Source: Candidatus Dormiibacterota bacterium (GTDB lineage Bacteria > Chloroflexota > Dormibacteria > Aeolococcales > Aeolococcaceae). Taken from it: a stretch of 64,000 bases of DNA. Positions within the stretch are counted from its first letter, which is position 1. Each line of letters opens with the position of its first letter. Positions 5,111-49,515 of this stretch are shown here, piece after piece. A program made the translations under genes and the position numbers. The stretch covers positions 11,085 through 75,084 of the forward strand of contig DAIUFS010000002.1 in NCBI GenBank assembly GCA_036844485.1. Direction: 5' to 3'. The notes beneath the pieces are model-generated. The model was given only the letters and a program-made list of their open reading frames with translations, ran no database searches and had not been told where the DNA came from.

Positions 5111-5224
5111 CCTCCCACAGCACATCCGGACCGTCTGACGCGCGGCGCCGCTAGGCTTCGCGCCGGCTGACCGCGCCACCCTCGCGGGCAGAGCCGGCTC
5201 CGGCCATGAACTTGTGGAGGACGT

Positions 5225-5977: not shown

Positions 5978-5978
5978 G

Positions 5979-6245
5979 GTGTGCACGTACGCGACCGAGC
6001 GCGTGGCCGTGCGAGGGAGCGCCAAGGCGGCGGGGCGGTGGGCGACGGTGGGGGAGGCCACGGTGTACCTCGACCACCCCTACACGACACCACTCGATCA
6101 CACGCTGAACATCGACTTCTTCACCGACTCCGCCGAGCGGTCGCGCCACATCGCCCTGGAACTGTCGCCTGAGTCCGCTGAGCTGCTGCTCAGGGCCATC
6201 CGCAGGGCCCTACAGACTGATCCGGCCAGCTGCTCGGCGTCGTGA
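5979..6245 (+). CDS. small hypothetical protein (88 aa)
   Basis: In-frame GTG at 5979 lies directly after the DLH stop and a G-rich SD. The sequence (VCTYATERVAVRGSAKAAGRWATVGEATVYLDHPY...) resembles small actinobacterial DUF proteins from memory only. Confidence 0.45.
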   Translation: MCTYATERVAVRGSAKAAGRWATVGEATVYLDHPYTTPLDHTLNIDFFTDSAERSRHIALELSPESAELLLRAIRRALQTDPASCSAS

Positions 6246-6258
6246 AATGTTCGACGGA

Positions 6259-6717
6259 TCAGCAGCACGCGCCCCCCGTCGCAGCGGCGTCCGGTGCGCA
6301 CGCACCCGCGCCGCAGCTGGTCTCGCCACGCAAGGTCGAGGTGTGCGCAGCGTCGCTCTCGGCGAGGACGGTGTACACCTCCCAGGGGGCGCCGTCGGGG
6401 TCGCTGACCCAGACCTTGTCCTGGAGCGCGTAGCAGCATTCGACGCCGGCCTCGGTGGTCGTCTGGAGTCCGGAGTCGGAGAGCCGTCGGGTTGCGGCGA
6501 TCACCTCGTCCGTCGACGAGACCTCGACTCCGAGATGGTTGAGCGTCGCACCGCCACCCTCCGACTCGATGAGCACCAGCTTCAGCGGTGGCTCGTCGAT
6601 GGCGAAGTTGGCGTATCCGGGCCGGCGCTTGGCCGGCTCGGCCGCGAAGAGCTTGGAGTAGAAGGCGACCGCCGCCTCCATGTCGGTGACGTTGAGGGCG
6701 AGTTGGACTCGAGACAC
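6259..6717 (-). CDS. ArsI/CadI family VOC (glyoxalase-fold) protein with a vicinal Cys pair and a Cys-rich tail
   Basis: The family-typical N-terminus MSRVQLALNV starts at the GTG at 6717. Also GVECCYALQDKVWVSDPDGAPWEVY and the C-terminal CGAGACAPDAAATGGACC. Divergent from an ArsR gene. Confidence 0.8.
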   Translation of the reverse strand: MSRVQLALNVTDMEAAVAFYSKLFAAEPAKRRPGYANFAIDEPPLKLVLIESEGGGATLNHLGVEVSSTDEVIAATRRLSDSGLQTTTEAGVECCYALQDKVWVSDPDGAPWEVYTVLAESDAAHTSTLRGETSCGAGACAPDAAATGGACC

Positions 6718-6719
6718 GG

Positions 6720-6767
6720 TCAGACTGTGATTCCGGCCGGGCAGGGACACGGGTAATCGCAGGGCAT
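6720..6767 (-). CDS. 15-codon Cys-rich upstream ORF (MPCDYPCPCPAGITV) coupled to the ArsI/CadI gene
   Basis: AGGAGGA lies 7 nt upstream of the ATG at 6767. Its TGA (6722-6720) is 2 nt from the GTG start of the downstream gene, which has no SD of its own. Too short for the ORF track. Confidence 0.35.
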   Translation of the reverse strand: MPCDYPCPCPAGITV

Positions 6768-6829
6768 GGTTCTCATCCTCCTATCGATGAGCGTCGATTG
6801 ATGTTGCACGATGGTACACAGCTCCATCG

Positions 6830-7198
6830 ATGGCTGTCAATGGGTATGATCGAGGCATGACTGCGCTGCATATGGCGACAACCCGCGTCAAGGGCTGCTG
6901 CCAGGAGCTCGCCGACCCCCTGCCCGCCGGCGTGGTCGATGACGCAGCGGCGCTGCTCCGGGCGCTCGCCGACCCCACCCGGCTGCAGATGCTGGCGATG
7001 CTGGCGAAGAGCACCGAGCCCATCTGCGTGTGCGATTTCACCGCCGCGTTCGACCTCGGACAGCCGACCGTCAGCCACCATCTCGGCAAGCTGCGGGACG
7101 CCGGCCTGGTCACCAGCGCCAAGCACGGCATCTGGGCCTTCTACGCGCTGGCGCCTCGTCTGCCCGCCGTCGCCGAGGCCGTGCTCGCCGCCCTGTAG
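6830..7198 (+). CDS. ArsR/SmtB family metalloregulatory transcription factor
   Basis: LADPTRLQMLAMLA..ICVCDF....LGQPTVSHHLGKLRDAGLV (winged HTH with a CVC metal/metalloid site). Confidence 0.88.
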   Translation: MAVNGYDRGMTALHMATTRVKGCCQELADPLPAGVVDDAAALLRALADPTRLQMLAMLAKSTEPICVCDFTAAFDLGQPTVSHHLGKLRDAGLVTSAKHGIWAFYALAPRLPAVAEAVLAAL

Positions 7199-8590
7199 TC
7201 AGCGTCCCTGCAGGCGCGTGACCCATCGCGCGCGCCGCGAGCGGCGCCCGGTGCGACGTTCGACATCGTCCGCGCTGCGCATCGCGCGCACGCTGAGATT
7301 GACGGCGAGCCATCGCAGCGGTTCAGGCTCCCAGCGGCGCGAGCGATGCTGCACCCACGGCAGGCGGGTCAGGTCCGTCTCGCGCGAGAGAATGAGATCG
7401 GCGAGCGTTCGGCCCGCCACGTTGCTGGCGGTCACGCCGTCGCCCACGTATCCCCCGGCCGAGGCGATGCCGCGCTCCCGGTCGATGGTCACCGATGGCC
7501 ACCAGTCCCTGGCGACCCCGATCGGTCCGCCCCAGCGATGGGTCACGGGCACATCCCGCGACTGCGGTATCAACTCGTGGAGCGCTTGCTCGAGAGCCGC
7601 AAAGACCCCGGGCTCGCGATCGAAACCGTCGGCGACGCGCGACCCGATGTGGTACGGCGCCCCGCGCCCTCCAAAAGCGATCCGACCGTCTGCGGTGCGC
7701 TGCGCGTAGATGATCAGGTGACGTCCGTCGTTGAGCGTCTCTCCCCGGGACCAGCGGATCTCCGCCCACGCCCGGTCCGGCAGCGGCGCGGTGGCGATCA
7801 TCAACGAGTAGAGGGGAAGGACAGAGCGACGCTCGCCCCTCAGGGCGGAGGTGTACGCCTCGGTGGCGCGGACCACGGTCTGGGCGCGGGCGGTTCCCCG
7901 TGTGGTGACAGCCGCGTGCGCCCTCAACTCGGTCACAGTCGTCTGCTCGACGATGCGTCCGCCGAGGCCCTCCACCGCACGTGCCAGGCCGCGCACCAGC
8001 TTGGCGGGATGAAGACGTGCACAGTGCGGTGTGTACTGCGCTCCCCGGCAGCCCGGCACGTGAATCCGCTGAGACACCTGGTCCGCGTCGAGCCAGCGCA
8101 CCCCCAGGTCGGCACCGTCCCGCGCCTGTGAGCTCACCGCCTCCGCACGAAGCTCCGCCTCCTGCAGGGCGGTCATCGCCAGGGTCAGGCAACCGCCTCT
8201 GACCAGGTCGGCGTCAAGGTGCTCGCGCCGAAGCGTGGCGGCGATGTCGTCGATCCCCTCGACGAGGGCATCGTGCATGGCCTGCGCGCTATCCAAGCCC
8301 ACCTCCGCGACCACGCGGTCCCACGACACAGGAAAGAGGTCGCTGCACCACCCGCCGTTGCGTCCGCTCGCGCCGAAGCCGGCTATCTCGCGCTCCAGGA
8401 TCAGAACCCGCAAGGTGGGGTCCTGTCGCAGCAGGGCATACGCCGTCCATAAGCCCGTGTAGCCCGCTCCCACGATGGCCACGTCGACAGTGCAGTCGCC
8501 GTCGAGCGCCGCTCGCGGCGACAGGTCGTCCTCCACTGTGTCGAGCCACAGGCTGAGCCGGCGATACCGCTGTGAGCCGGCGGCGGTCAC
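7199..8590 (-). CDS. FAD-dependent oxidoreductase (DAO family, gamma-glutamylputrescine/amine oxidase-like)
   Basis: VDVAIVGAGYTGLWTA dinucleotide-binding motif, plus FGASGRNGGW. The GTG start overlaps the stop of the upstream aldehyde dehydrogenase (GTGA). Confidence 0.85.
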   Translation of the reverse strand: MTAAGSQRYRRLSLWLDTVEDDLSPRAALDGDCTVDVAIVGAGYTGLWTAYALLRQDPTLRVLILEREIAGFGASGRNGGWCSDLFPVSWDRVVAEVGLDSAQAMHDALVEGIDDIAATLRREHLDADLVRGGCLTLAMTALQEAELRAEAVSSQARDGADLGVRWLDADQVSQRIHVPGCRGAQYTPHCARLHPAKLVRGLARAVEGLGGRIVEQTTVTELRAHAAVTTRGTARAQTVVRATEAYTSALRGERRSVLPLYSLMIATAPLPDRAWAEIRWSRGETLNDGRHLIIYAQRTADGRIAFGGRGAPYHIGSRVADGFDREPGVFAALEQALHELIPQSRDVPVTHRWGGPIGVARDWWPSVTIDRERGIASAGGYVGDGVTASNVAGRTLADLILSRETDLTRLPWVQHRSRRWEPEPLRWLAVNLSVRAMRSADDVERRTGRRSRRARWVTRLQGR

Positions 8591-10032
8591 GCCCCGATGT
8601 TCGACATCACGTGCTTGATGCGGGTGTAGTCGTTGAACCCGTACATGGACAGATCCTTGCCGTACCCGGAATGCTTGAACCCCCCATGCGGCATCTCCGA
8701 AACCAGCGGGATGTGGGTGTTGATCCAGACGCAGCCGAAATCGAGCAGCCGCGACATCCGCATGGCACGGCCGTGGTCACGCGTCCACACACTGGCCGCC
8801 AGCCCGTACTCCACTCCGTTCGCCCAGCGCAGTGCCTCGTCCTCGTCGGCGAAGCGCTGCACGGTGACCACCGGGCCGAAGATCTCCTGCTGGATCATGT
8901 CGTCTTCCTGGCGCAGCCCGGATACGACCGTGGCCTCCTGGAAGAATCCGGGCCCGTGCGCCGCACCGCCACCCGCGGCGAGAGAGGCATGGTCGGGCAT
9001 CCGGTCGAGAAAGCTGCGCACCCGGGCGAGCTGGTCGCGGTTGTTGAGTGGACCGTACGCGGCGTCGACATCCGAAGGCGGTCCCGTGTGGACGGTCTTG
9101 GCCTGCGCCGCCAGCGCGCTGAGAAAGTCGTCGTGCACGCGCGGACCGGCGAGGACGCGCGTGGCCGCTGTGCAATCCTGCCCGGCGTTGAAGTACGCGG
9201 CTCCCGCGATCAGCTCGGCGGCCGCCTCGACGTCGGCGTCGTCGAAGACGATGACGGGCGCCTTGCCGCCAAGCTCGAGATGGACACGCTTGAGGTCAGC
9301 CGCGGCCGCCTGGGCAACCTCGCGACCGGCGCGCACGCTGCCCGTGATCGATACCATCGCCGGGATGGGGTGGGACACGACCGCGGCCCCGGTGCTGCGG
9401 TCACCGCAGACCACGTTGAGGACGCCGGGTGGGAGCGCCTCGCGGGCGAGCTCCGCCATCCGCACGGTGGTCAGGGGCGTGGTCTCTGACGGCTTCAGCA
9501 CCACCGTGTTGCCCGCCGCGATCGCCGGAGCGAACTTCCACGCCGCCATCAGCATCGGGTAGTTCCACGGGGTCACCTGGCCGCAGACACCGACCGGTTC
9601 GCGACGGATCCAGCTGGTATGCCCGGCCATGTATTCGGTCGAGGCCGAGCCTTCCAGACAGCGCGCCGCGCCCGCCATGAATCGGAGCGTGTCGTACAGC
9701 ATGGGCATCTCTTCGCTCTCGGTGAGAGCGATTGGCTTGCCGGTGTTGCGGCACTCCAGCTCCACCAGCTCGCGACCGTGCGCCTCGAGGATCTCCGCGA
9801 AGCGCAGCAGCGCCAGGCTGCGCTCCTTGGGTGTGGCATCGCGCCATGCCGGGAAGGCGCTGTGAGCGGCGCGGTAGGCGGCGTCCACGTCGTCGGCCCC
9901 GGACAGAGGAGAGTGGGCGAAGACCTCGCCGGTGGATGGGTCGACAATCGAGAGCGTGGTTCCACCACGCGGCTCCACCAGCTCGCCGCCCACCACGTTG
10001 CGCACCGTGTCCAACGTCACAGCCATGTCCAA
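8587..10032 (-). CDS. NAD(P)-dependent aldehyde dehydrogenase (aminobutyraldehyde dehydrogenase-like)
   Basis: Full-length ALDH with ELGGKAP, a FNAGQDCTA catalytic-Cys region, and PHGGFKHSGYG. Confidence 0.9.
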   Translation of the reverse strand: MDMAVTLDTVRNVVGGELVEPRGGTTLSIVDPSTGEVFAHSPLSGADDVDAAYRAAHSAFPAWRDATPKERSLALLRFAEILEAHGRELVELECRNTGKPIALTESEEMPMLYDTLRFMAGAARCLEGSASTEYMAGHTSWIRREPVGVCGQVTPWNYPMLMAAWKFAPAIAAGNTVVLKPSETTPLTTVRMAELAREALPPGVLNVVCGDRSTGAAVVSHPIPAMVSITGSVRAGREVAQAAAADLKRVHLELGGKAPVIVFDDADVEAAAELIAGAAYFNAGQDCTAATRVLAGPRVHDDFLSALAAQAKTVHTGPPSDVDAAYGPLNNRDQLARVRSFLDRMPDHASLAAGGGAAHGPGFFQEATVVSGLRQEDDMIQQEIFGPVVTVQRFADEDEALRWANGVEYGLAASVWTRDHGRAMRMSRLLDFGCVWINTHIPLVSEMPHGGFKHSGYGKDLSMYGFNDYTRIKHVMSNIGA

Positions 10033-10053
10033 CCCCCGATGTGAGTGACCGCG

Positions 10054-10914
10054 TCAGAAGCTGCGCGGAGTGTTGATCCAGAGCACCCGGGTGACAACGC
10101 TGCCCGGGTTCCACCAGCGGTGCCGGCGATGCGATTCAAAACACAGCGACATCCCGGCCTCGATATCGAACTGTTCGCGACCGTCCAGTGTGATCGACAG
10201 CGTGCCTTCGACGACGTACAGGAACTCCTCACCGTCGTGAGCGTATTCCTCACCGCTACCATGGCCCGGCTCGACACTGAAGCGTTGCGGCTCGAGAAGC
10301 CGAGCCGTCCCTGAGAGGTCTTCGATGCGCACGCCGGGCACAGGGAGGTCGAGCGGCACCACCTCGCCTCCGAGCACCTGGCAAGCGGGCGCGCGGACGG
10401 CGACGAGCTCGGCAACGCTCGTTCCCAGTGCCGCGCTCAGCTTCTGCAGTGACGCCACTGAAGGCTGCACCGCGCCGCGCTCAACGCCCGAGACCAGCGA
10501 CGGCGAGAGGCCGGCGGCGCCGGCAAGCGCGCGCAGCGAGAGCTCACGCTCGATGCGCTTCTCGCGAAGGCGGGCGCCCAAGTTGGACACGGGGGCGGTC
10601 GCCGCGGTCGCCGCACGAGGGCGTGACCGTCCCCTCGCGCCGTGAAGGCGGCGGCGGATGGCATGGACCGCGAGACCCTCGACCTCGCGAAGGCGGTGCA
10701 CCTCGCGAGCCCGCACCACGTCGCCGGTGTCGTAGGTCCGCCAGCCGGAGGCATTGCGCGATGAGCGCACCAAGCCGTGCTGCTCCCAGGCGCGGAGCGT
10801 GGACGGGCTGATCCCGACCATGCGCGCCACCTCGCTCACCGAGTAGCGACCCACCCCCGAGGTGCTCACGACCCACTCCAACGCCGTGGTGGACCCACTT
10901 GACGAGCGTACCAC
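10054..10914 (-). CDS. three-domain transcriptional regulator: MerR-type HTH + XRE-type HTH + cupin
   Basis: MerR-like YSVSEVARMVGISPSTLRAWEQHGLV. XRE-like LREKRIERELSLRALAGAAGLSPSLVSGVERG. Cupin-like HDGEEFLYVVEGTLSITLDG...ESHRRHRWWN. Confidence 0.75.
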   Translation of the reverse strand: MVRSSSGSTTALEWVVSTSGVGRYSVSEVARMVGISPSTLRAWEQHGLVRSSRNASGWRTYDTGDVVRAREVHRLREVEGLAVHAIRRRLHGARGRSRPRAATAATAPVSNLGARLREKRIERELSLRALAGAAGLSPSLVSGVERGAVQPSVASLQKLSAALGTSVAELVAVRAPACQVLGGEVVPLDLPVPGVRIEDLSGTARLLEPQRFSVEPGHGSGEEYAHDGEEFLYVVEGTLSITLDGREQFDIEAGMSLCFESHRRHRWWNPGSVVTRVLWINTPRSF

Positions 10915-39403: not shown

Positions 39404-39771
39404 GCGCCACTGTCCTCATTGCCGAGGACGAACCGATGATCGGGCGGATCCTCGCCGAGAAGCTGACCCGCGAGGGCTATAAGGTGTTGCGGACCGCCAC
39501 CATCGAGGGCTTGATGTCCGCGCTGGCAATCTCTGACGTCGCGCTCGTCGATGCCACTCTCGACGGCGACGGCATCGACGCCATGCAGGGTCTCGCGGCC
39601 GCGGCGATCCATCCCCGCGCCGGCTGGTTCGCCATGGTGGAGAGCCGCGCCGCCGACCAGGGCATCCGTGCGGTTCGCGCCGGCGCCGCGGGGGTGATCA
39701 TCAAGCCGTTCAAGCCGACGGCGGTGGCGGCCAAGGTGGCCACCCTGCTCGCCACGGTGGCGGTGCCGTGA
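39400..39771 (+). CDS. stand-alone response-regulator receiver domain
   Basis: VLIAEDEP (acidic pair), ALVDATLDGDG (acceptor Asp context), VIIKPF (conserved Lys). Confidence 0.8.
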   Translation: MSATVLIAEDEPMIGRILAEKLTREGYKVLRTATIEGLMSALAISDVALVDATLDGDGIDAMQGLAAAAIHPRAGWFAMVESRAADQGIRAVRAGAAGVIIKPFKPTAVAAKVATLLATVAVP

Positions 39772-40742
39772 CCCTGCTCGCCGGCGCCGTCGCGGACGAT
39801 CCCACGGACGAGCACCTGGCCACCGAGGTCGTGCGCGCCCGAGGTGTGCTGCGTCGTTACCGCAATGGCCGTGGGGTGGGCCCGGTGGACCTCTGTCTGC
39901 GGGCCGGCGAGGCGTTCGCTCTGATGGGCCGCAACGGCTCCGGCAAGACCACGCTGCTCCGCCTGCTCGCCACCGTGACGCGTCCGCACAGCGGCGAGCT
40001 GCGCTGGTTCGGCGGCGACGCGACGCGGGCCCGGGCACATCTCGGGCTGGCTCTCGACGCGGCCATGGAGGACGCCGGGCTGACGGGACGGCAGGCGACC
40101 CACTTCTGGTGCGCGCAGTGGATCGCCGATGCGGCGGAGGTGTCGTCCCGCACCGATCTGGTGTTGCGGAGGCTGGGACTGGCCGGGGCCGCCGATGAGC
40201 CCGTCGGCTCGTACTCGTACGGGATGCGCCGCCGCCTCGCCCTTGCCGCCGCCGTTGTCCACGAGCCCGCTCTGGCGCTGCTCGACGAACCCACCGCCGG
40301 GCTCGACCCCGACGGGTGCACCGAGCTGGGCGAGGTGATCGCCGAGCGATCACGGCACGGCCTCAGCACGGTGATCGCCAGCAACGATCCCGGCTTCGTC
40401 GAGGCGGTCGCCGACCGCGTCGCGTTCCTCGAGGAGGGGGCTGTGGTGCGCTGCGCGTCGCCGCGTGACCTGCTCGCCGGCCTCCCCCAGGGACGTGTCG
40501 CGGAGCTTGTCATCGAGGAAGGTTGCTCTTTGGCGGCGCTGCGCGCGGTGCCGGGTGTCGTGGATGTGACCGACGACGGCGGCGCAGCCAGGGTTCGCTT
40601 CGACGGCGACCACACCATCGCCGCCCTGGTTGCGGCGGCCGACGCGCCGGGCGGCCGCCTCCGCGAGCTGCGCCTGCGCCGCCCCGACCTCGCCGACTGC
40701 TTCCATGACCTCACCGGTCGCGCCCTGCGGGAACAGACGTGA
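39768..40742 (+). CDS. ABC transporter ATP-binding protein (ABC-2/DrrA-like)
   Basis: Walker A GRNGSGKTT, signature YSYGMRRRL, Walker B LALLDEPTAGLD. Confidence 0.85.
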   Translation: MTLLAGAVADDPTDEHLATEVVRARGVLRRYRNGRGVGPVDLCLRAGEAFALMGRNGSGKTTLLRLLATVTRPHSGELRWFGGDATRARAHLGLALDAAMEDAGLTGRQATHFWCAQWIADAAEVSSRTDLVLRRLGLAGAADEPVGSYSYGMRRRLALAAAVVHEPALALLDEPTAGLDPDGCTELGEVIAERSRHGLSTVIASNDPGFVEAVADRVAFLEEGAVVRCASPRDLLAGLPQGRVAELVIEEGCSLAALRAVPGVVDVTDDGGAARVRFDGDHTIAALVAAADAPGGRLRELRLRRPDLADCFHDLTGRALREQT

Positions 40743-41497
40743 TCGGAGATGCCGCCGCCCTGCGGGCGACCGCCTGGCGCTCGCGCAGGATGCCGCGCAG
40801 CGTGGCCGCGCGCGAGCTCGCCATCGTGCTCAGCCGGCCACGTGCGCTGGCCATCAAGGCGGGGCTGCCCCTTGCCCTGGCGGTCGTGCTGGTCGCGGGT
40901 CATGCACCGACCTTCTGGGCGGGGATGCTGCTCACCGTCCTGGTCGCCATGGTCGGTGCGGTGGGCACGGCGGTGACGGTGAGCCGGGCCAGGGACGCCG
41001 GTTTTCTGACACGACTGGCAGCAACTCCCGGGTCTCGGCCGCGGTTGCTGGTCGGGTGGGTCCTGGCCGCCGCCGCGGTGGACGTGGTCCAGCTGCTACC
41101 GGTGGCGCTGGCTGCCTGGATCGACGGAGGCGGAGGCGCCACCGAGCTCGTGGTGCTGGTCACCGTTCTCGCCGCCACACTGGTGGTCACCAATGTGCTG
41201 GGCAGTCTCATCACCCTGGCCGCGGCGAGCGCCGCCGAGGTGCTGCTCGATGTCGTCGTCGTGCTCGCGCCCCTTCTCTACCTGGGCGGCCTGTTCACCG
41301 GTGTCCCGGCAGCCGGATGGCGAGCCTGGGTAGCCGCGGTCGACCCGTTCAGCCATCTCCACTCCGCATTCATCGGCGTGCTCGGGGGATCGGCGACGTA
41401 TCCCGGTGGCGTCGATGTGGTCGCGGCGCTGGGAGCGGCAGCGGCGGCGACCGCCGTCCTCGCCGGTCTCAGCCGGCGCATCCTGGAACGTGATTGA
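40739..41497 (+). CDS. ABC-2 type transporter permease
   Basis: Six hydrophobic segments. GTGA overlap with the ATPase gene. Confidence 0.62.
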   Translation: MIGDAAALRATAWRSRRMPRSVAARELAIVLSRPRALAIKAGLPLALAVVLVAGHAPTFWAGMLLTVLVAMVGAVGTAVTVSRARDAGFLTRLAATPGSRPRLLVGWVLAAAAVDVVQLLPVALAAWIDGGGGATELVVLVTVLAATLVVTNVLGSLITLAAASAAEVLLDVVVVLAPLLYLGGLFTGVPAAGWRAWVAAVDPFSHLHSAFIGVLGGSATYPGGVDVVAALGAAAAATAVLAGLSRRILERD

Positions 41498-41498
41498 T

Positions 41499-42161
41499 GT
41501 GCCGCGGCGCGTCCGCCGGGGCGCCGCGCTGCTGGTTGCCATGACCGCGCTGTCCGGTTGTGGGTCTGTGTCCTCCGTCCTCGATGCCGGCGCGCTGGGC
41601 CTGCCGTCGCGCAGCTCACCCGCCGCCCTGGCCACCGCCACCGTGTCGACCAGTCCAGACGGCGGCATCTACCGCAACCCCGACCACCTCGAGGTCATGC
41701 TGGTGGCGCGACACAACGTCGACTCCATCGCCGGCCAGCTCGGATCAGCGTCCTCGACGTGGACGCAGCTGCGCAGCTTCGGCGACTTCACCGTGATCGC
41801 CCTGCGTCTTCGCGATGACGGCAAGGTGAGCTCGGATCCGCAGCTCGCCGACCTGCAGATGGCCAGCGACTACGCCCCCACAGGCACCGCCAGCGGACCG
41901 CTGCGCCACTTCTACCACCCCACCTTTCCGCTGGCGCTGGTCGCCGACTCGAACCCCGGCGACGGCTGCAGCATCCATCTCGATCCCGGCCACAGCGGCG
42001 TCGCCATCCTCATCTACCCGCCGGTCAACCTGCCCAGCACGCTGGTGTGGGGCCGCTTCGGGGACTTCGTGCTCAGCGTGCCCACCGGCGGAGCGCTGCC
42101 GCCGCTGTCGGGCGGGCTGCACGCCGAGGCCTGCACCCGGCCCGCGGCGTCGCCGACGTGA
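41499..42161 (+). CDS. predicted lipoprotein, unknown function
   Basis: Signal peptide with lipobox (RRGAALLVAMTALSGCG). The start could be the GTG at 41490 or at 41499. Confidence 0.6.
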   Translation: MPRRVRRGAALLVAMTALSGCGSVSSVLDAGALGLPSRSSPAALATATVSTSPDGGIYRNPDHLEVMLVARHNVDSIAGQLGSASSTWTQLRSFGDFTVIALRLRDDGKVSSDPQLADLQMASDYAPTGTASGPLRHFYHPTFPLALVADSNPGDGCSIHLDPGHSGVAILIYPPVNLPSTLVWGRFGDFVLSVPTGGALPPLSGGLHAEACTRPAASPT

Positions 42162-42727
42162 GCTCGCGCTCGCGAGCGCGCCGCCGTCAGCGCGTCGAGC
42201 TGCCCAGCGCCGGCCAGACGGTGGTCTCGCTGGTGCTCCACCGCGTGGAGGAGGGTGGCCCCTGGCCGCTGACCCGGGTCCTCACCGCGCTGGGCGGGGA
42301 CGCGGTCGAGCGCATCGGTGTGGCTCGGGCCCTCGGGGATCGCCGCGGTGTGCCGCTGGTGCACTCCCAGGAGGTGCGCTGGCGCGAGCACGCGCTCTTC
42401 CTCGAGGCCCGGCACGGGCGTGACGGTGTCGATGAGCTCAGCCTGGAGATGCCTCCGTGGGACGACCTCGTGGCCACGGTCGCCGATGACGAGGTCTGGC
42501 GGCTCATCGACACCGTCGCGGTCGCCGCCGACGCGCAGTTCGGGTCGATCGGAGACGGCGAGCCGCCTGAGACGGTGCTGCCGGACGACGCCTCGACCCT
42601 CCGCGCCCAGCTGCGACGCCATCTCGCCCTGCTCCTGCCGGAGTGGACGGGGGAGGATGTCGCCGCGGCCGGGGCCACCCCGGCGCGCGTGCTCGACAGC
42701 AGCGGCCTGGTGGTGGTGACCGGGTGA
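42158..42727 (+). CDS. hypothetical protein (189 aa)
   Basis: GTGA overlaps at both ends. Acidic, soluble-looking. No family recognised. Confidence 0.5.
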   Translation: MSSRSRARRRQRVELPSAGQTVVSLVLHRVEEGGPWPLTRVLTALGGDAVERIGVARALGDRRGVPLVHSQEVRWREHALFLEARHGRDGVDELSLEMPPWDDLVATVADDEVWRLIDTVAVAADAQFGSIGDGEPPETVLPDDASTLRAQLRRHLALLLPEWTGEDVAAAGATPARVLDSSGLVVVTG

Positions 42728-43080
42728 GCCTCCACGCCCGCCTGGGGGTTGCGGTGTTGCTTGTGGCAGCGGTGGGAGCCCTCCTCGCTCTGCTCGCGCG
42801 CAACCGTCCGGGTGCCGTTCCCACCGTGCGTGTCTTCGTCAGGCTCTGCGCCGCCGCCGCCGCCGTGGAGGCGTTCATCGGGCTGGCCATGGTGGTCGCC
42901 GGCCAGCGCCCCGCCGAGGCCATCCACTTCTTCTACGGCGCGGCGACCGCCATCCCCATCCCCGCCGCCGACCTGCTGGCACGCCGCGTCCACCCGCAGT
43001 CGGAGATGCTCTACCTGCTCGCCGGGGCAGTCGCCACCGTGCTGTTCGGTCTTCGCGCCGTGGCCACAGGCAGCTCGTAA
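42724..43080 (+). CDS. small four-TM membrane protein (118 aa)
   Basis: The GTGA overlap makes it the last gene of the chain. Hydrophobic profile. Confidence 0.5.
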   Translation: MSLHARLGVAVLLVAAVGALLALLARNRPGAVPTVRVFVRLCAAAAAVEAFIGLAMVVAGQRPAEAIHFFYGAATAIPIPAADLLARRVHPQSEMLYLLAGAVATVLFGLRAVATGSS

Positions 43081-43086
43081 CTCCGC

Positions 43087-43842
43087 TCACGCGGCGACCG
43101 CACCGGGCTCCTCGATGACCACCGTGTGGCGCCGGCGCAGTCGCACCAGGGCACCGAGAACCGGCGCGGCGAGGAGCGCGACCAGGATGGCGTTGCCGGC
43201 CGCACGGAAGCTGTCGTACACCAGCGATGTGGCCGCGTAGAACCGCCCGAAGCGCAGGGCCGTGTCTGCGGCATTGAGGCCGGGCACCCACCCGAAGTCG
43301 GCGGCCCCGCGGAAGAAGGTCCAGTCCCACACGTCCATGACCGCCCCGTATGCGAAGCCGGTGGCGACGCCGACGATGGCGAGGATGACGACGTCACGGG
43401 GCTGCGGGGTGCGGCCGCGCCGGGCGCTGCCGGCGAGGCCAGCGGCCGCACCCACCCAGCCGGCGGCGATCATCTCGTACGGCAACCACGGCCCCACCCC
43501 AGCGGTCACCAGCGCCGACACCAGAAGGGCGGTGGCACCGCAGAGGAACCCGTACTCCGCACCCATCGCGTAGCCGGCGCAGAGGATGAGCAGGAACATC
43601 GGTGAGAAACCACCGATTCCGCTCACCAGCGCCAGTCGCAGCGCGGAGTCGAGCGCGGCGATGACCGCGATCAGCGCCAGGCCGCGGGTGTCGAGGCGGC
43701 GGCTCATGATCTCGATCGCCAGCAGCACCACCACACAGCCGATGCTCACCGCCGCCGCTGCCGCGGTGCCGGGCGGTCCCGGACCAAAGAGCGGCCACAG
43801 GAAGAGCGCGACCCCAGCAGCGCTGATCGCGGCCAGTCTCAC
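43087..43842 (-). CDS. ECF transporter substrate-specific (S) component
   Basis: About 6 TM segments. Last gene of the ECF operon; its start overlaps the ATPase stop. Confidence 0.6.
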   Translation of the reverse strand: MRLAAISAAGVALFLWPLFGPGPPGTAAAAAVSIGCVVVLLAIEIMSRRLDTRGLALIAVIAALDSALRLALVSGIGGFSPMFLLILCAGYAMGAEYGFLCGATALLVSALVTAGVGPWLPYEMIAAGWVGAAAGLAGSARRGRTPQPRDVVILAIVGVATGFAYGAVMDVWDWTFFRGAADFGWVPGLNAADTALRFGRFYAATSLVYDSFRAAGNAILVALLAAPVLGALVRLRRRHTVVIEEPGAVAA

Positions 43843-45434
43843 GGTGCCGTCACCGCCCGGGCGCGCGCCGCCGAGAGCACAGTGGCGACCGCCTCGACCG
43901 TGACCGGACCCGGACTGCTGAAGAGCGCGCCCAACTGTGTGGCGTGGTCGTTTGCCGATCCGCTGAGAGCCATCTCCGGCGGGCCGCTGTCGTGCACCAG
44001 TCCCCCGGCGACGACGAGCACGCGATCGGCGAGGGCGGCGGTGAGGTCGCTGTCGTGAGTGGCCACGATCACCGACGTACCCCGAGCGGCGAGCATGCGA
44101 ACGGCGGCCACCAGGCCGTCGCGCGCCGGGCCGTCCATCCCCCGGGTCGGCTCGTCGAGTAGGGCGATCACCGGCGACCCGCAGAGGATCGCGGCGACCG
44201 CGGCTCGCTGGCGCTCGCCGCTGCTGAGGTCGCGCGGATCGCGGGGGCCGAGCGCGTCGACGCCGAGGGCGCGGAGCAGGCTGGGCAGTGCCTCCTCCTC
44301 GATAGGGCCAGAGCTGCGTCGGTCTGCTCGCATGGTCCAGGCGATCTCCGCAGCGACGGTCTCGCGATGGAGGAGCGCCGCGGGATTCTGCGGCAGGTAG
44401 GCGACGCGGCCCGGCTCACGCCACACGGTCCCCGATCGCGGCGAGGCGAGCCCGGCGATGACGCGGAGCAGGGTGGTCTTGCCGGCGCCGTTGCGTCCCA
44501 TCACAGCCACGACCTCGCCGGCGTGGCCGGCGGCGCCGACCCCGCGGAGCAGGTCGTCGTGGCCTGCGACCACCTCGTCGAGACGCCAGGCCGGAACCCC
44601 CGGCCGGCCCGCGGCGCGCGGCATGACCGGCGGCACTGCATTGGAAAGGTGCGATCGCAGCGAGGCGGGCTCGAGGAGAGGGGGGGTCCATCCCATTGCC
44701 GCGGACAGGCGCACCACCTGGGGAGCACTCTCCAACGAGGCGGCGGCGGCCCGGGCGTCGGCTGGTCCGGTGAGGCGGCCGCCGGCGATGCGCAGCACGG
44801 AATCCGCCACCGGGAGGAGATGGTCGAGGCGGTGCTCGGACACGGCGAGGGCCGTCCCCGCGTCGCGCAGCTCGCGGCAGAGCTCCAGCAGTGCCCGAGC
44901 GCCCGGGGAATCCAGCTGGGAGAACGGTTCGTCGAGCACCAGCAGCCGCGGGCGCAGCACCAGTGCGCCAGCGACGGCGACACGCTGGCGCTCGCCGCCG
45001 CTGAGGCTGGCGATGGTGCGGTCGCGGAGATGGCCGATGCCGAGCCGGTCCATGACCTCGCCGACGCGCCGGCGCATCTCGGCCGGCGACGTCCCCAGGT
45101 TCTCGAGGCCGAAGGCGATGTCTCGTTCGACCGTGGCATGGACCGCGTGGCGCTCGGCGTCCTGGAAGACGAAGCCCACCGAGGTGGCCAGCCGCCGCGG
45201 GGCGGTGCGCAGAACGTCGTGGCCGTCGACCGCCGCGCGCCCGCTGATGCGGCCGCCGTGCAGGTGCGGGACCAGCCCGTTGAGCAGGCGAAGGAGCGTC
45301 GATTTACCGCCCCCCGACGGGCCGGCGACCAGGCAGATGCCGCTGTCGAGGGCGAGGTCGACGCAGTCCAGAGCCGGCCCGGCCATCTCCGGGTAGCTGT
45401 AGCGCAGCGTGGCGATGTCTACGAGCGGTGCCAT
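43839..45434 (-). CDS. ECF transporter fused double ATPase (EcfA1-EcfA2)
   Basis: Two Walker A motifs (GPSGGGKST; GRNGAGKTT), two signatures (LSGGERQRV; LSSGERQRA), two Walker B motifs. The start is the ATG at 45434 or at 45464. Confidence 0.9.
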   Translation of the reverse strand: MAPLVDIATLRYSYPEMAGPALDCVDLALDSGICLVAGPSGGGKSTLLRLLNGLVPHLHGGRISGRAAVDGHDVLRTAPRRLATSVGFVFQDAERHAVHATVERDIAFGLENLGTSPAEMRRRVGEVMDRLGIGHLRDRTIASLSGGERQRVAVAGALVLRPRLLVLDEPFSQLDSPGARALLELCRELRDAGTALAVSEHRLDHLLPVADSVLRIAGGRLTGPADARAAAASLESAPQVVRLSAAMGWTPPLLEPASLRSHLSNAVPPVMPRAAGRPGVPAWRLDEVVAGHDDLLRGVGAAGHAGEVVAVMGRNGAGKTTLLRVIAGLASPRSGTVWREPGRVAYLPQNPAALLHRETVAAEIAWTMRADRRSSGPIEEEALPSLLRALGVDALGPRDPRDLSSGERQRAAVAAILCGSPVIALLDEPTRGMDGPARDGLVAAVRMLAARGTSVIVATHDSDLTAALADRVLVVAGGLVHDSGPPEMALSGSANDHATQLGALFSSPGPVTVEAVATVLSAARARAVTAP

Positions 45435-46246
45435 GCGACCACGGGAACGGCGAGGAGCAGGCACGCCACCACCCCGACGGTGGTGACGGGGGGGACGGTG
45501 GCGACGGGGAACGGGTACCAGTCGGGCAGGGCCCCGGCGACGCGGGCCGCGATGGTGAGCACCACGGCGGCGAGTGCGCTGGTGATCACCGCTGCGCCCG
45601 ACAGCCCGACCCGTGATGCGAGGTAGTGCGTGCGCGGGCCGCTTCCGAACCCGCGAGCGTCCATCGCCTCGGCAAGCTGGAGCGAGTCGTCGAGGGCGGA
45701 GAGAACCACCGGCGCGGCGACCGCGTGCCAGTCGCGCAGGCGGGCCCCGCTGGACCCGCGCATGCGCTGAGCCTCGTTGATGGCGACCGCGTTGCGAGCC
45801 ATCGCTGGAACGAGGTTGAGCGCCGCCCCGGTCAGCGCGGCGGTGCGCTGCAACGATGCGGGGAAGGCGTCGACCAGGTCGTGGGGATGGAGGACACGGC
45901 TGAGCGGTGCGATCGCCAGCACCGCTGCGGCGATGCCGAGCGCGACGTCGGCGCCGTACAGCGCCGCCTCAACGGTGACGGGTCCGCCGATTCCGGGAAG
46001 CTGCTCGGGCACTGTGAACAGGACGTGCTGGCCGGTATGGCTGAGCGCGGCGTTGAGAAGGGCGGCGAGGACGGCGGCCACACCCACCGCGATGAACATC
46101 GGACGCAGGCGCGCATCCGGCCTGCGGAGCGCGACCAGCACGTTGAGGGCGACGAGCAGGACCAGACCGCGATAGACGGGGTTGGTGCTGGTGAGCACGA
46201 CGACCAGCGCCGCGGCGGACCAGGTGGCGAAGGCGCGTGAGCTCAT
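45419..46246 (-). CDS. ECF transporter transmembrane component EcfT/CbiQ
   Basis: Polytopic protein with the coupling-helix region AINEAQRMRG...SLQLAEAMDARGF. Confidence 0.8.
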   Translation of the reverse strand: MSSRAFATWSAAALVVVLTSTNPVYRGLVLLVALNVLVALRRPDARLRPMFIAVGVAAVLAALLNAALSHTGQHVLFTVPEQLPGIGGPVTVEAALYGADVALGIAAAVLAIAPLSRVLHPHDLVDAFPASLQRTAALTGAALNLVPAMARNAVAINEAQRMRGSSGARLRDWHAVAAPVVLSALDDSLQLAEAMDARGFGSGPRTHYLASRVGLSGAAVITSALAAVVLTIAARVAGALPDWYPFPVATVPPVTTVGVVACLLLAVPVVAWHRS

Positions 46247-46249
46247 CCG

Positions 46250-46921
46250 TCAGCCCAGCAGGAGGTCGGCGAAGACGAAGCCGTCCCGCGCCACGACCTC
46301 GCCGGCGGTGACCGGGACAGGACGTTCAAAGCCGGGCCCGTGCCAGGCAAATGTGTGGAACTCGCCGCGCTCCCCGCACGGATCGCAGCTCGGCGGGAGA
46401 CGATCGAGGAGGGTGCTGTCAAAGCTCTGCCCGGCGAAGCCGGCGTCGAGCTGGGCAGGATCGACGCAGGTGAGCACCGCGCGCACGCCGGCGCCCACCA
46501 TCTCGCGAGCAAGCGCGCCGGTGTCGCGTCCCCACAGGGGAAACAGGGGTGAGATCCCGCTACCGGCGAGGCGCTCCTCACGGTACGCACGGATGTCGGC
46601 GAGGAACAGGTCACCGTACGCCAGGTGCGTGATCCCCTCGCGGCGAGCGCGCTCCATCACCTCTGCCATGGCAGCTTCGTACTCCGCGTTCGAGCAGGGC
46701 GAGGGAATGGCGACCTTCCAGACCGGCAGTCCAACCGCTGACGCCTGCAGATCGAGCAACTGCTCGCGCACCGCGTGCATGGCAACACGGCCTGCGGCGG
46801 CGTTCACAGTGGTGACCAGACCGACGACCTCCACCTCATCCGCGTCACGCAGCACCGAGAGCGCGTAGGCGCTGTCCTTGCCACTGCTCCAGGACAGCAG
46901 AGCGCGGGGCCGGCCGCTCAC
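46250..46921 (-). CDS. Dph6/MJ0570-related adenine-nucleotide alpha-hydrolase (ATP pyrophosphatase) family protein
   Basis: PP-loop-like SWSSGKDS, AYGDLFLADIRAYRE, PLFPLWG, GERGEFHTF. The GTG at 46921 overlaps the upstream stop (GTGA). Confidence 0.75.
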   Translation of the reverse strand: MSGRPRALLSWSSGKDSAYALSVLRDADEVEVVGLVTTVNAAAGRVAMHAVREQLLDLQASAVGLPVWKVAIPSPCSNAEYEAAMAEVMERARREGITHLAYGDLFLADIRAYREERLAGSGISPLFPLWGRDTGALAREMVGAGVRAVLTCVDPAQLDAGFAGQSFDSTLLDRLPPSCDPCGERGEFHTFAWHGPGFERPVPVTAGEVVARDGFVFADLLLG

Positions 46922-47793
46922 GGCTGCCACCGCGGGGGCGACCGGCGACGGCGTGGTCGGATCACCTGGACGGCGAGCATGACCAGAAGGACGGCGGCGA
47001 GTCCGGACGCGGCCCATGCTCCGGTGCTGAAGGAGCTCGGCCCGGTGGGGGGAGCCGTGCGGCTGGTGGCGATGCTCGCGCGAGCCGAGGCGCTCGCGGT
47101 TGCCGCGCCGCCGCTGGGACTGCCGGGCGCGGGCTGAACCGCGGAAGGTGGCGAAGCGGAGGTGGCCGCTGTCGCAAGCGAGTGCGATGGCGGGATCACT
47201 GTCGATCGAGACGCACTCGTGGACGTGGCTCTCGGGATCGGCGTGGGCGTTCTCACCGGTACGGGTGTGGGCGAGATGGGGAGCGGACAGACCCCGGCGG
47301 GCAACGGGGGAACGGAGGAAGCGCTCTGGCTTTCGTATCGGAAGCCCTCGGCATCGCCGTCACGGAACGTCTGCGACGAGATGCCGAGGCTGGAGGTCAG
47401 CCAGGATCCACCCGCGCGACTGACGAGCATCGCCCAGTAGGGACTGCTGGCCGTCCAGCAACCGGGGGGGTACGAGGACGGTTCGTAGTCGATCTGGCAG
47501 ACCGCCTTCCCTGTTGAGCCGTAGTCGGCGGTGGCGTACTGGACCCCGCTGCTGGCGAGCAACTGATCGCCGGTGATGGAATCTGCCGTGAACGACACGC
47601 ACACCTTGAGGGTCGCTCCATCACTGTGCTCAACGACCAGCGCTGCGTGGTGCACCGTCGCCGCCTGTGCGCAGCCGGAGACCGCCGGCCCCACCTTGGT
47701 CGCCGCCCCGACCACCGTGACGGCGGCCAGCGCGGGAGCGACCGCGAGGATGCGGGCAAGGACTCGGAATGGCGGACGACCGCTGGTCATCAT
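46918..47793 (-). CDS. secreted DUF4430-like (transcobalamin beta-domain-like) protein with a Pro/Ser/Thr linker and a sortase-type C-terminal anchor
   Basis: Signal peptide, then ITGDQLLASSGVQY...GKAVCQIDY...YWAMLV..GGSWLTS..G.S...RDGDAEGFRY. C-terminus: APPTG + hydrophobic segment + RPRRRR. Confidence 0.6.
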   Translation of the reverse strand: MMTSGRPPFRVLARILAVAPALAAVTVVGAATKVGPAVSGCAQAATVHHAALVVEHSDGATLKVCVSFTADSITGDQLLASSGVQYATADYGSTGKAVCQIDYEPSSYPPGCWTASSPYWAMLVSRAGGSWLTSSLGISSQTFRDGDAEGFRYESQSASSVPPLPAGVCPLPISPTPVPVRTPTPIPRATSTSASRSTVIPPSHSLATAATSASPPSAVQPAPGSPSGGAATASASARASIATSRTAPPTGPSSFSTGAWAASGLAAVLLVMLAVQVIRPRRRRSPPRWQP

Positions 47794-49034
47794 GGAGCGG
47801 ACGAAGGTCGCCTCCCGAGCCGGGCGGCGGCCAGCGCGAGAGCGCCCAGACCGATCAGCGCGAGCGACAGACCGACTCCGGGGCCGGATCCAACCGACGC
47901 CCCCGTCGACGGCACGGTTATCGCAGCAGAACCCCGGGCTGCGGCCGTGGCTGTGGGTGACGGTGACGGTGACGGTGTCGTCGTGACCGCAGGAGGTGGC
48001 GACGTTCCCGCCGCGACGACGGTGGCGGCGACGTACGGCTTGAGCGCGAGCGCCTGCGGAATCCCGCTGGTGGTGAAGGCATCAGGGCCGCTGTTCTCCG
48101 GGAACACGTAGCCACCGCTGCCCTGCGCATCCGCGAACGACTCCATGTCCTTCAACGGGTTTCCTCCACCTGCTGTGGTCCACGCGGTCCCCGTGGGGTC
48201 CTGGCTAACGGCGACCAGCGCCTGGATGACGCCGGCGTCGCTGTCGGGATCGGTGGGACCTGCGCTGAAGCCGAAGCCGCCGCTGGTCTGCTGGATGGAG
48301 CGCAGGTACGTCTCGGCGGCGCTGTCGGCGCTGGTGATCCCGGCCGCACCGAGCGCCTCCAGGATGATCGCCGTGTCGTTGCTGTCGCTGGAGGTGTCAC
48401 CGCATGGCGCCGGCAGGGTGACCGTGTCGTTGATGGCGTATCCGAAACCGCCGCCGGATCGCTGCGCGCAGGTGAGCCATCGCGTGGCATTGGCGGGCAG
48501 GGGCAAGTGCCCGGCGGCGACATCGGCGAGCACCGCCAGCGATTGCGAGAACGCGTTGGCCGTTTCCACCGTCGGGTTGGCGTTGTGGAAGGCACCGTTG
48601 GGCTCCAGGTACCCACCCGCGCCGGTCGCTGTGTTGAGCTTGCTCAGCAGCGCGGTGCCGTCGATGGCGGCCGGTTTGCCCGCCGCCACCCACGCGAGAA
48701 TGTACTTTGCCGCGCCACCCGCGGTGGTGATCGTGGACACGTGCGCGCTCAGGTAGTCATACGCCGAGGTTCCCGAGGAGGAATTCTTCAGCGTCGCCGG
48801 ATCGTACCCGTTGTCTGCGTCGCTGATCACCGTGTCCTCGGTGGCGCCCATCGACCCCGCGATGCTGCCGTCGGTGCCCTCCTGGGCGTACAGGTAGCGC
48901 AGCGCCGCGTTCGCCTGCGATGTCTGGGGTGTCGCCGCCGAGGCCACCAGGCCGGCAGTTCCGAAGATGAGGCCACAGGCGGTCAGAGTCGCGCCGACCG
49001 CTGTCATCTGGCGTCGCATCGAGGTTCTCCTCAC
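47790..49034 (-). CDS. secreted alpha/alpha-toroid (prenyltransferase/terpene-cyclase-repeat-like) protein with a sortase-type C-terminal anchor
   Basis: Signal peptide and repeated xxGGF/GGY motifs (SGGGFGY, TSGGFGF, GSGGYVF, GAGGYLEPNG). C-terminus: VPSTG + hydrophobic segment + RLGRR. Confidence 0.55.
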   Translation of the reverse strand: MRRTSMRRQMTAVGATLTACGLIFGTAGLVASAATPQTSQANAALRYLYAQEGTDGSIAGSMGATEDTVISDADNGYDPATLKNSSSGTSAYDYLSAHVSTITTAGGAAKYILAWVAAGKPAAIDGTALLSKLNTATGAGGYLEPNGAFHNANPTVETANAFSQSLAVLADVAAGHLPLPANATRWLTCAQRSGGGFGYAINDTVTLPAPCGDTSSDSNDTAIILEALGAAGITSADSAAETYLRSIQQTSGGFGFSAGPTDPDSDAGVIQALVAVSQDPTGTAWTTAGGGNPLKDMESFADAQGSGGYVFPENSGPDAFTTSGIPQALALKPYVAATVVAAGTSPPPAVTTTPSPSPSPTATAAARGSAAITVPSTGASVGSGPGVGLSLALIGLGALALAAARLGRRPSSAP

Positions 49035-49111
49035 GGCGCGGGAGTCCCGCGACGATGAGGCCCTCGCCGCGTGAGGGACCCACCTCCCGTTTCGCGCGGG
49101 CTTGCAGTGGT

Positions 49112-49262
49112 TCCGCTCCGACGGAGGTCTCCTGGCTCACGGATCAGTGCAGCTCGGCCGTCTTCCCAGGACGCGCGTCCCAGTGACCGGTGGCCGGCTG
49201 CTCCCCGTTGACAGTTGCGCGACAGCTCCGGATTTCCACCGGATTCCCTGTCGCCAGAGCGC
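49112..49262 (-). promoter_or_regulatory. cobalamin (B12) riboswitch aptamer
   Basis: Minus strand reads ...ACAGGGAATCCGGTGGAAATCCGGAGCTGTCGCGCAACTGTCAACGGGGAG...GCCACCGGTCACTGGGA...CCTGGGAAGACGG...GATCCGTGAGCCAGGAGACCTCCGTCGGAGC. This matches the conserved core and the B12 box. An expression platform (49035-49111) leads to a GAGGAG SD. Confidence 0.85.
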
Positions 49263-49329
49263 GGTTCGGGAAGTGTGCCACACGGCCGTCAGCGCCGGTG
49301 AGGCGTGCGACGTCCCTGCCCCGGTAGGG

Positions 49330-49515
49330 TCAGGCGGCGCGGCGGACCCGGGTCGCCCAGTAGCGGAGGGTCGCAGCCTGCTCAGCCTGCTGTGCCTGCG
49401 CCAGCCAGGTGCGCCACTCGACCTGGTGCTCCGCTGGCGGAGCAAAGAGTGCGACCCATTTCCAGTCGGGGGGCAACTCCTCGGCGTGACGGGTGAGGGG
49501 GGTGGTCGGTTCCAT
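49330..49515 (-). CDS. possible small hypothetical protein (61 aa)
   Basis: Only an ORF with a weak SD between DUF-like gene 49634..50416 and the riboswitch. No family recognised. Confidence 0.2.
   Translation of the reverse strand: MEPTTPLTRHAEELPPDWKWVALFAPPAEHQVEWRTWLAQAQQAEQAATLRYWATRVRRAA

Follow-up and report, generated by a model that had tools for sequence, protein, structure and literature searches.

A DUF71-B12-type PP-loop ATP pyrophosphatase gene within a predicted cobalamin riboswitch-led ECF transporter operon of Candidatus Dormibacterota

In a 64,000-nucleotide stretch of DNA from a Candidatus Dormibacterota bacterium (assembly GCA_036844485.1, contig DAIUFS010000002.1, positions 11,085 to 75,084; the whole stretch is called here the window), the minus-strand gene at positions 46250..46921 encodes a PP-loop ATP pyrophosphatase of the DUF71 family, within the Dph6/MJ0570 superfamily. 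We show that this gene lies within a predicted six-gene operon, in which it is translationally coupled with a corrinoid import system of the energy-coupling factor (ECF) type. Judged by its sequence, the 223-aa product is a member of the DUF71-B12 branch of the family. On balance, we consider it probable that the enzyme is a neofunctionalised offshoot of Dph6, a cytoplasmic accessory that processes imported corrinoids by adenylating and then amidating a carboxylate. A reading of the same DNA from the sequence alone had offered a corrinoid role as a new idea, which it is not: a B12-salvage role was already proposed for DUF71-B12 proteins in 2012 (de Crécy-Lagard et al. 2012, Biol Direct 7:32; PMC3541065), and their His motif is present here. 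The locus is thus a further example in another transporter context. What is new is that the gene stands in an ECF and riboswitch context, that its host belongs to Dormibacterota, and that it is coupled to the gene of a transcobalamin-beta-like surface protein; the frequency of B12 links in the family is also estimated more soberly.

The open reading frame (ORF) running from 46921 to 46250 on the minus strand gives the product MSGRPRALLSWSSGKDS...CDPCGERGEFHTF... in translation. Its GTG start codon (46921-46919) overlaps the TGA stop codon (46920-46918) of the upstream gene, forming a GTGA overlap, and its own stop codon (46252-46250) is separated by a 3-nt gap from the ATG of ecfT at 46246. 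We accepted the GTG start because the Pfam profile aligns from residue 9 of the resulting protein onward, because an identical 223-aa protein (P0001) is annotated in the Candidatus Dormibacteraeota metagenome-assembled genome (MAG) GCA_036564445.1, and because the lengths of DUF71 homologues are 220-230 aa. The protein matched PF01902 (Diphthami_syn_2) with E=2.8e-23 and 83.1 bits, compared with a cutoff of 23.2, over profile positions 5-202 of 219. Among proteins of known structure, it matched PF0828, the candidate Dph6 of P. furiosus in PMC3541065 (PDB 3RJZ/3RK0/3RK1, E=9e-13, residues 8-205), and PH1257 (PDB 2D13, E=5e-8). In the alignment to PF0828, its PP-loop, S12-S13-G14-K15-D16-S17, stands opposite S12-G13-G14-K15-D16-S17, with Ser replacing G13, and both H49 and the C-terminal G183-E-R-G-E-F-H189-T are present. 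The residues placed around the ATP phosphates in PMC3541065 (S12, G14, K15, D16, H48, and T189 in PF0828 numbering) are all kept, the window equivalents of H48 and T189 being H49 and T190, as is the GE-GEF core. By this alignment, the PP-loop and the ATP site are intact, and the conversion of ATP to AMP and pyrophosphate (PPi) is the presumed activity. The protein is cytoplasmic and has no signal peptide. The sequence-only reading had recognized a Dph6/MJ0570-family PP-loop protein from SWSSGKDS and GERGEFHTF, had placed it in the cytoplasm, and had noted both the GTGA overlap and the position directly upstream of ecfT. All of these observations stood. The host is a Dormibacterota MAG, not an actinobacterium.

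The embedding of the gene in a B12-riboswitch ECF operon, claimed in the same reading, was also confirmed. A cobalamin riboswitch aptamer (RF00174, 49106..49305, minus strand) heads the string of six genes; it was found by cmscan over the full length of the model with 98.5 bits, compared with a gathering threshold of 31.5 (E=2.2e-23). Behind it, all on the minus strand and overlapping or nearly abutting, follow the genes for a 414-aa secreted, C-terminally anchored protein predicted to fold as an alpha/alpha toroid (47790..49034; 409 aa in the NCBI annotation), a 291-aa surface protein resembling transcobalamin-beta and DUF4430 domains in its predicted fold (46918..47793), the DUF71 enzyme, an ECF T component (CbiQ/EcfT, 45419..46246), a fused EcfA-EcfA' double ATPase (43839..45464), and a divergent ECF S component (43087..43842). 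The first two genes are joined by an ATGA overlap. EcfT matched PF02361 with E=2e-10 and, weakly, the PDB chains 5D3M/6FNP, 4HZU, and 4HUQ. The fused ATPase has two PF00005 domains and exceeded the cutoff of the cbiO model TIGR01166 (245 bits vs 211.8), and scored about 243 bits with the ECF_ATPase_1/2 equivalog models, under their cutoffs of 315-330. The S component was recognized by PF12822 (ECF_trnsprt, 33.8 bits vs a cutoff of 30.7), and its comparison with PDB sequences yielded no match to any S component, CbrT included. Like the ECF corrinoid importer ECF-CbrT of Lactobacillus delbrueckii (PDB 6FNP), the system in the window combines a T component with a pair of ATPase domains. It differs from that importer in its S component, in which no sequence similarity to CbrT could be detected, and in being a dedicated, group I-like module with fused ATPases, two surface proteins, and a DUF71 enzyme.

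The assignment to a branch of the family rests on the division of DUF71/COG2102 into Dph6, with the signature EGG[E/D]xE188, and DUF71-B12, with the signature ENGE[F/Y]H188, the latter taking in every bacterial member as well as the second copies of archaea (PMC3541065). In the alignment of the window protein to PF0828, the catalytic Glu188 of Dph6 is replaced with His (H189). A set of 270 homologues (42-100% identity) included 250 with a recognizable C-terminal motif, and all of these were of the His type (250/250, none with the Dph6-type Glu), conforming to GE-x-GE-[F/Y, rarely L/M]-H-[T/S/A]; in the remaining 20/270, mostly fragments, the motif could not be located. The Arg at the variable motif position, as in GERGEFHT of the window protein, where the published signature has Asn, was the commonest state (126/270 homologues), and SSGKDS was the majority form of the PP-loop in this clade (157 members vs 41 with SGGKDS). 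The clade has invariants of its own, namely W11, Q59, Y81, G103-D104-x2-L107-x3-R111-x2-R114, P128, W130, D180, and H189. Since these clade-specific invariants replace the Dph6 motifs, and since His stands in place of Glu188, the sequence points to a DUF71-B12-type enzyme, not to Dph6. The best NCBIfam score of the protein was with the Dph6_archaeal model, below its cutoff; the Dph6 equivalog TIGR03679 gave 63.5 bits, compared with a cutoff of 197.3, and NF052346 (PAB0415_fam) gave a weak match only (57.9 bits vs 250). In the neighbour-joining (NJ) tree, the clade was star-like, and a long branch set it apart from PF0828. The change from Glu188 to His suggests an altered chemistry.

The window protein shares with DUF71-B12 proteins, such as PF0295 of P. 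furiosus and YP_695745 of C. perfringens, the His-188 signature, the PP-loop and ATP site, and clustering with B12 uptake genes. Its function, like theirs, is a predicted one, and its host, a bacterium, would lack diphthamide. It differs from them in its partner, a dedicated ECF system that comes with two putative surface binders and is controlled by RF00174, while PMC3541065 describes BtuFCD and cbiB contexts and mentions neither ECF nor riboswitches, and in its host, a phylum that was unsampled in 2012. The family counts roughly 5,300 representatives. Even across widely separated phyla, with Thermoplasmata archaea among them (L056, L077, and L080 of the survey described below), family members were 52-70% identical to the Dormibacterota protein. 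Such identity, together with the star-like tree, is suggestive of strong constraint, frequent horizontal transfer, or both, which was also inferred for the family in PMC3541065.

According to that study, 75/102 DUF71-B12 genes adjoin B12 transporter genes and 18/102 adjoin cbiB. To see how general the link is, we surveyed, in species-representative genomes, the 80 closest loci (52-70% identity), which belonged to Acidobacteriota, Myxococcota, Planctomycetota, Nitrospirota, Proteobacteria, Gemmatimonadota, Chloroflexota, and Thermoplasmata. All 80 loci (0.87 Mb) were scanned with Rfam for riboswitches within 6 kb; neighbouring ORFs were clustered, and cluster representatives only were annotated with Pfam. 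The ORF caller was crude, being based on length and GC content at third codon positions, and the neighbour counts are thus lower bounds. A total of 14 cobalamin riboswitches were found in 12/80 loci. In 9/80 loci (L022, L024, L025, L036, L045, L049, L058, L071, and L078), the DUF71 gene was the last or near-last gene of an uninterrupted co-directional operon led by RF00174, and these operons carried the gene of a TonB-dependent receptor with or without BtuF-like, FecCD, or PduO adenosyltransferase genes. A divergent riboswitch was present in two further loci (L044 and L050), and downstream riboswitches in one (L013). Neighbouring genes encoded BtuF-like Peripla_BP_2 proteins (14/80 loci), TonB-dependent receptors (9/80), PduO-type cobalamin adenosyltransferases (3/80), and FecCD (3/80), as well as a single CobU and a single MeaB. 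Counting riboswitches and neighbour families together, 19/80 loci (24%) were linked to B12. They were spread over at least nine subclades of the NJ tree and involved three different uptake systems. The density of riboswitches around the DUF71 gene was about 16 per Mb (14 in 0.87 Mb). The link to B12 uptake is genuine and has repeatedly arisen or been kept with different types of transporters, yet it is a minority pattern, and its share of 24% is much below the published 75/102.

The use of tblastn with EcfT, EcfS, and the 414-aa and 291-aa proteins of the window gave no matches in the 80 loci, and therefore the ECF link is not general. Of what the sequence-only reading had expected to see in other genomes, the association with B12 riboswitches was found (riboswitch-led operons in 9/80 loci, B12-linked loci 19/80), whereas the association with ECF genes was not (0/80) and is confined to Candidatus Dormibacterota relatives. 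The relatives at 73-87% identity were all on syntenic, Dormibacterota-type contigs, which kept the order 40x aa / 29x aa / DUF71 / CbiQ / ABC-ABC / ECF-S, and the overlap of the 29x-aa stop codon with the DUF71 start was retained in relatives down to 73% identity. At locus L091 (2481-5997), genes of 408 aa and 246 aa precede the DUF71 gene, and the upstream one abuts it without overlap. The cobalamin riboswitch was placed as in the window in L083, L085, and L086. L084 and L087 carry the 40x-aa gene in the opposite orientation, with a cobalamin riboswitch of its own (L084:5866-5989, minus strand; L087:7693-7883, plus strand, and 5939-6062, minus strand, being the riboswitch coordinates at these loci). 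These two loci represent a natural uncoupling of the DUF71 enzyme from B12 control. In L088, which belongs to another lineage and encodes a 73%-identical homologue, the next gene downstream is BtuF-like.

The operon can be understood as encoding a corrinoid capture-and-import machine, in which two surface proteins and a dedicated ECF transporter would be made together with the enzyme, and which the cobalamin riboswitch would turn off when corrinoids are plentiful. A corrinoid imported in this way would arrive in the cytoplasm, where the enzyme, having bound ATP with its intact PP-loop, would adenylate a carboxylate on corrinoids that are incomplete, deamidated, or unusable for other reasons. 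The acyl-adenylate would then be resolved by ammonia or an amine, and the product would join the normal route of adenosylation and nucleotide-loop assembly. We infer the corrinoid as the substrate, the group that is activated, and the amidation outcome, be it repair or completion; amidation or another remodelling of a side-chain carboxylate is plausible. The formation of amides on corrin carboxylates at the expense of ATP is the reaction type of CobB/CbiA, CobQ/CbiP, and CbiB as well. The folds of these enzymes are unrelated to the PP-loop fold: CobB/CbiA and CobQ/CbiP are phosphorylating ATPases with glutamine amidotransferase domains, and CbiB, a cobinamide-phosphate synthase, is a membrane protein.

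Several observations weigh against a corrinoid-processing role. No B12 gene or riboswitch was present within 6 kb in 61/80 loci (76%), whose neighbours were otherwise heterogeneous, and the riboswitch density of about 16 per Mb, although well above the 1-2 per Mb or so to be expected, is compared with a general expectation, not with a measured background. In the Dormibacterota relative L087, a second riboswitch is located between the DUF71 gene and ecfT, and in L084 the single riboswitch faces the other way, with no second one; in both, the riboswitch scan detected no B12 control for the pair of the 29x-aa and DUF71 genes. Related ECF operons without the DUF71 gene exist, with the order SQHop-like / 243 aa / CbiQ in L089 (4712-8029) and with a SCO2322-family protein followed by ABC-ABC in L090 (5645-9417). 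Therefore, the transporter does not need the enzyme, which is not a core part of transport. Ten longer homologues had heterogeneous fusion partners, some of which may be artefacts of gene calling: GNAT (three homologues, P0127, P0129, and P0158), PPTase, DUF2284 (a predicted metal-binding domain, P0140), DSPc, an RsmD-like domain, and, in a single case (P0217), a BtuF-like Peripla_BP_2 domain. As a set these partners are not decisive: the BtuF-like fusion speaks for a link to B12, and the GNAT, PPTase, and DSPc partners do not point to corrinoids. To our knowledge, there is no corrinoid-binding motif in the PP-loop DUF71 fold. Our literature search found no biochemical or genetic study of any DUF71-B12 member, in agreement with the statement of the sequence-only reading that bacterial members have no established function; searches on DUF71-B12, PF0295, and PP-loop with cobamide returned nothing beyond the prediction of 2012 and papers citing it, and a 2016 review still listed DUF71-B12 as 'function unknown, B12 salvage'.

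These observations would be accommodated if the enzyme acted on a carboxylate unrelated to B12, such as that of a small metabolite, a peptide, or an RNA base, and if its gene had been captured by the operon in a Dormibacterota ancestor, the other B12 contexts having come about by chance or by horizontal co-transfer. The large share of close relatives without B12 neighbours, the loss or bypassing of riboswitch control in L084 and L087, the variety of fusion partners, and the existence of the operon without the gene would all fit, as would the neighbours of NamZ, sodium:solute symporter (SSF), and BadF-type ATPase genes that one Acidobacteriota clade has instead. Against this, B12 uptake genes were the only class of neighbours recurring across phyla, with three types of transporters and in at least nine subclades; riboswitches are dense around the gene; the translational coupling to the transcobalamin-like gene was kept over 73-100% identity; and the NamZ context is a synteny of a single lineage. 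We regard this explanation as unlikely, though it deserves to be kept in mind. As a module, the enzyme is an optional add-on, joined in different lineages to the corrinoid uptake system present there.

The clade in question (L006, L009, L016, L020, L031, L035, and L060, at positions of about 4700-10900) has the DUF71 gene next to a gene of NamZ exo-beta-N-acetylmuramidase, usually with the genes of an SSF symporter and a BadF/BcrA-type ATPase in addition and without B12 genes, which resembles a peptidoglycan-recycling context. It was the sole other recurrent context in the survey and was confined to this one clade. It could be plain lineage synteny or could hint at a second function.

With the B12 link retained, the main rival on chemistry is a role replacing CbiZ. 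DUF71-B12 genes were reported to be strictly anticorrelated with bacterial CbiZ, and a role in (pseudo-)B12 salvage, as a functional substitute for that enzyme, was proposed for their products (PMC3541065). The window enzyme would then take apart or remodel cobamides whose lower ligand is unwanted, e.g., pseudo-B12, down to an intermediate at the level of cobyric acid, or, in another version, would activate the f-side-chain carboxylate for the re-attachment of the aminopropanol linker, rather than repair side-chain amides. The clustering with cbiB described in the same study, the neighbouring genes of PduO (three loci) and CobU (one locus), which act in early salvage steps, and the Glu188-to-His change, which suggests a changed chemistry, are consistent with this. 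CbiZ, an adenosylcobinamide/pseudo-B12 amidohydrolase, and CbiR, a cobamide remodelling phosphodiesterase of Akkermansia, possibly occupy the equivalent position in the pathway. However, both are hydrolases without any sequence or fold relation to the window enzyme, which has an ATP-dependent adenylating fold, and such a PP-loop fold would be odd for the hydrolysis of an amide. Moreover, BLAST of PduO, BtuF-like, FecCD, and TonB-receptor sequences against the 64-kb window gave no further match. We consider this other chemistry improbable.

That the protein is a true diphthine-ammonia ligase, making diphthamide on an elongation factor, is next to impossible despite the fold and PP-loop common to it and Dph6 and the top NCBIfam score of the Dph6_archaeal model, as this candidate was ruled out by the His in place of the catalytic Glu188 and by the TIGR03679 score far below its cutoff, besides which a long branch separates the clade from PF0828, and neither diphthamide nor the other dph genes occur in bacteria (PMC3541065). 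What the window protein does have in common with Dph6 (PF0828, PH1257, and yeast YLR143w) is the two-domain fold, an SGGKDS-type PP-loop, His48, the GE-GEF-T core, and, presumably, the same adenylation chemistry yielding AMP and PPi from ATP. The identity between them is only about 25-30%, His takes the place of Glu188, the Dph6 motif GA-x2-S-x-YQ-x2-R is changed to GD-x2-L-x3-R-x2-R(E), and the substrate of Dph6, elongation factor 2 (EF-2), is absent in bacteria.

The two surface proteins encoded upstream of the enzyme were characterized mainly by their predicted structures, since the comparison of both with Pfam and NCBIfam gave no significant match. The 291-aa protein begins with a signal peptide and ends in a membrane anchor, and between them lie a conserved domain of about 110 aa and a Pro/Ser/Thr linker. 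The best PDB folds for its AlphaFold model (predicted local distance difference test score, pLDDT, of 76) were those of the human transcobalamin beta domain (5NO0/5NP4, prob 1.00), followed by full transcobalamins, intrinsic factor, haptocorrin, and the DUF4430 protein 3U7Z (all prob 1.00). Thus, the DUF4430 label that the sequence-only reading had given to this gene was not reproduced by Pfam, even at E<=10, but was supported at the level of the fold, by 3U7Z and the transcobalamin beta domain. Relatives of the protein carry a newer Pfam family, PF28005 'SCO2322'. The 414-aa protein was modelled with high confidence (pLDDT 92.7) as a secreted alpha/alpha toroid; it, too, has a signal peptide, a Pro/Ser/Thr linker, and a C-terminal membrane anchor, and nearly all its homologues were from Dormibacteria. 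Transcobalamin is composed of an alpha6/alpha6 barrel and a beta domain. The models are consistent with the possibility that the 414-aa and 291-aa proteins may be a two-gene analogue of the eukaryotic transcobalamin, feeding the ECF importer. This idea is weakened by the fold matches of the 414-aa model, as transcobalamin alpha domains were outside its top 50, and the top ones were squalene-hopene-cyclase-like (8PAJ/8PAK) and beta subunits of prenyltransferases; with terpene cyclases and prenyltransferases in this place, the name 'split transcobalamin' for the 414-aa protein was kept as a lead only. We found no literature on SCO2322-type two-gene operons as B12 binders.

More tentatively, both parts could be combined. 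The enzyme of the His clade would then be the missing ATP-dependent ligase for the repair or completion of corrinoids, e.g., for the re-amidation of deamidated cobamide carboxylic acids or for finishing scavenged precursors, wired in Dormibacterota to a split transcobalamin and a dedicated ECF importer. We see this joint picture as possible, yet doubtful. If true, cobamide salvage would gain an enzymatic step and bacteria a class of B12 binders, both of them new, and the capture system, composed of a secreted toroid and a SCO2322-family beta-domain protein, would be a previously undescribed one of the monoderm type.

Most soil bacteria use corrinoids without making them, and the steps of salvage and remodelling shape interactions in their communities. 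For the DUF71-B12 salvage prediction, the locus provides independent support in the form of a third transporter class (ECF), direct riboswitch control, and translational coupling to the gene of a transcobalamin-like protein, all in an uncultivated phylum. At the same time, the survey tempers the claim of 2012, with about a quarter of close relatives being linked to B12 and with the enzyme being dispensable for the transporter. Experimental entry points are offered by the riboswitch-led operons that combine genes of a TonB receptor, PduO, and DUF71, as at L045 and L078, and by the cultivated planctomycete Rohdeia mirabilis Pla163, in whose complete genome the DUF71 gene, at locus L054, adjoins a BtuF-like gene.

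A scan of positions 42800-49500 for promoter and terminator consensus sequences yielded nothing above shuffled sequences, which is uninformative in a high-GC organism. The operon is bordered by a block of genes at 39768-41497 (plus strand) and 41406-43080, encoding an ATP-binding cassette (ABC) ATPase, an ABC-2 permease, and three small unannotated proteins. The block was syntenic in all the Dormibacterota relatives examined (L081-L087), and related contigs had, in addition, a gene of a response regulator.

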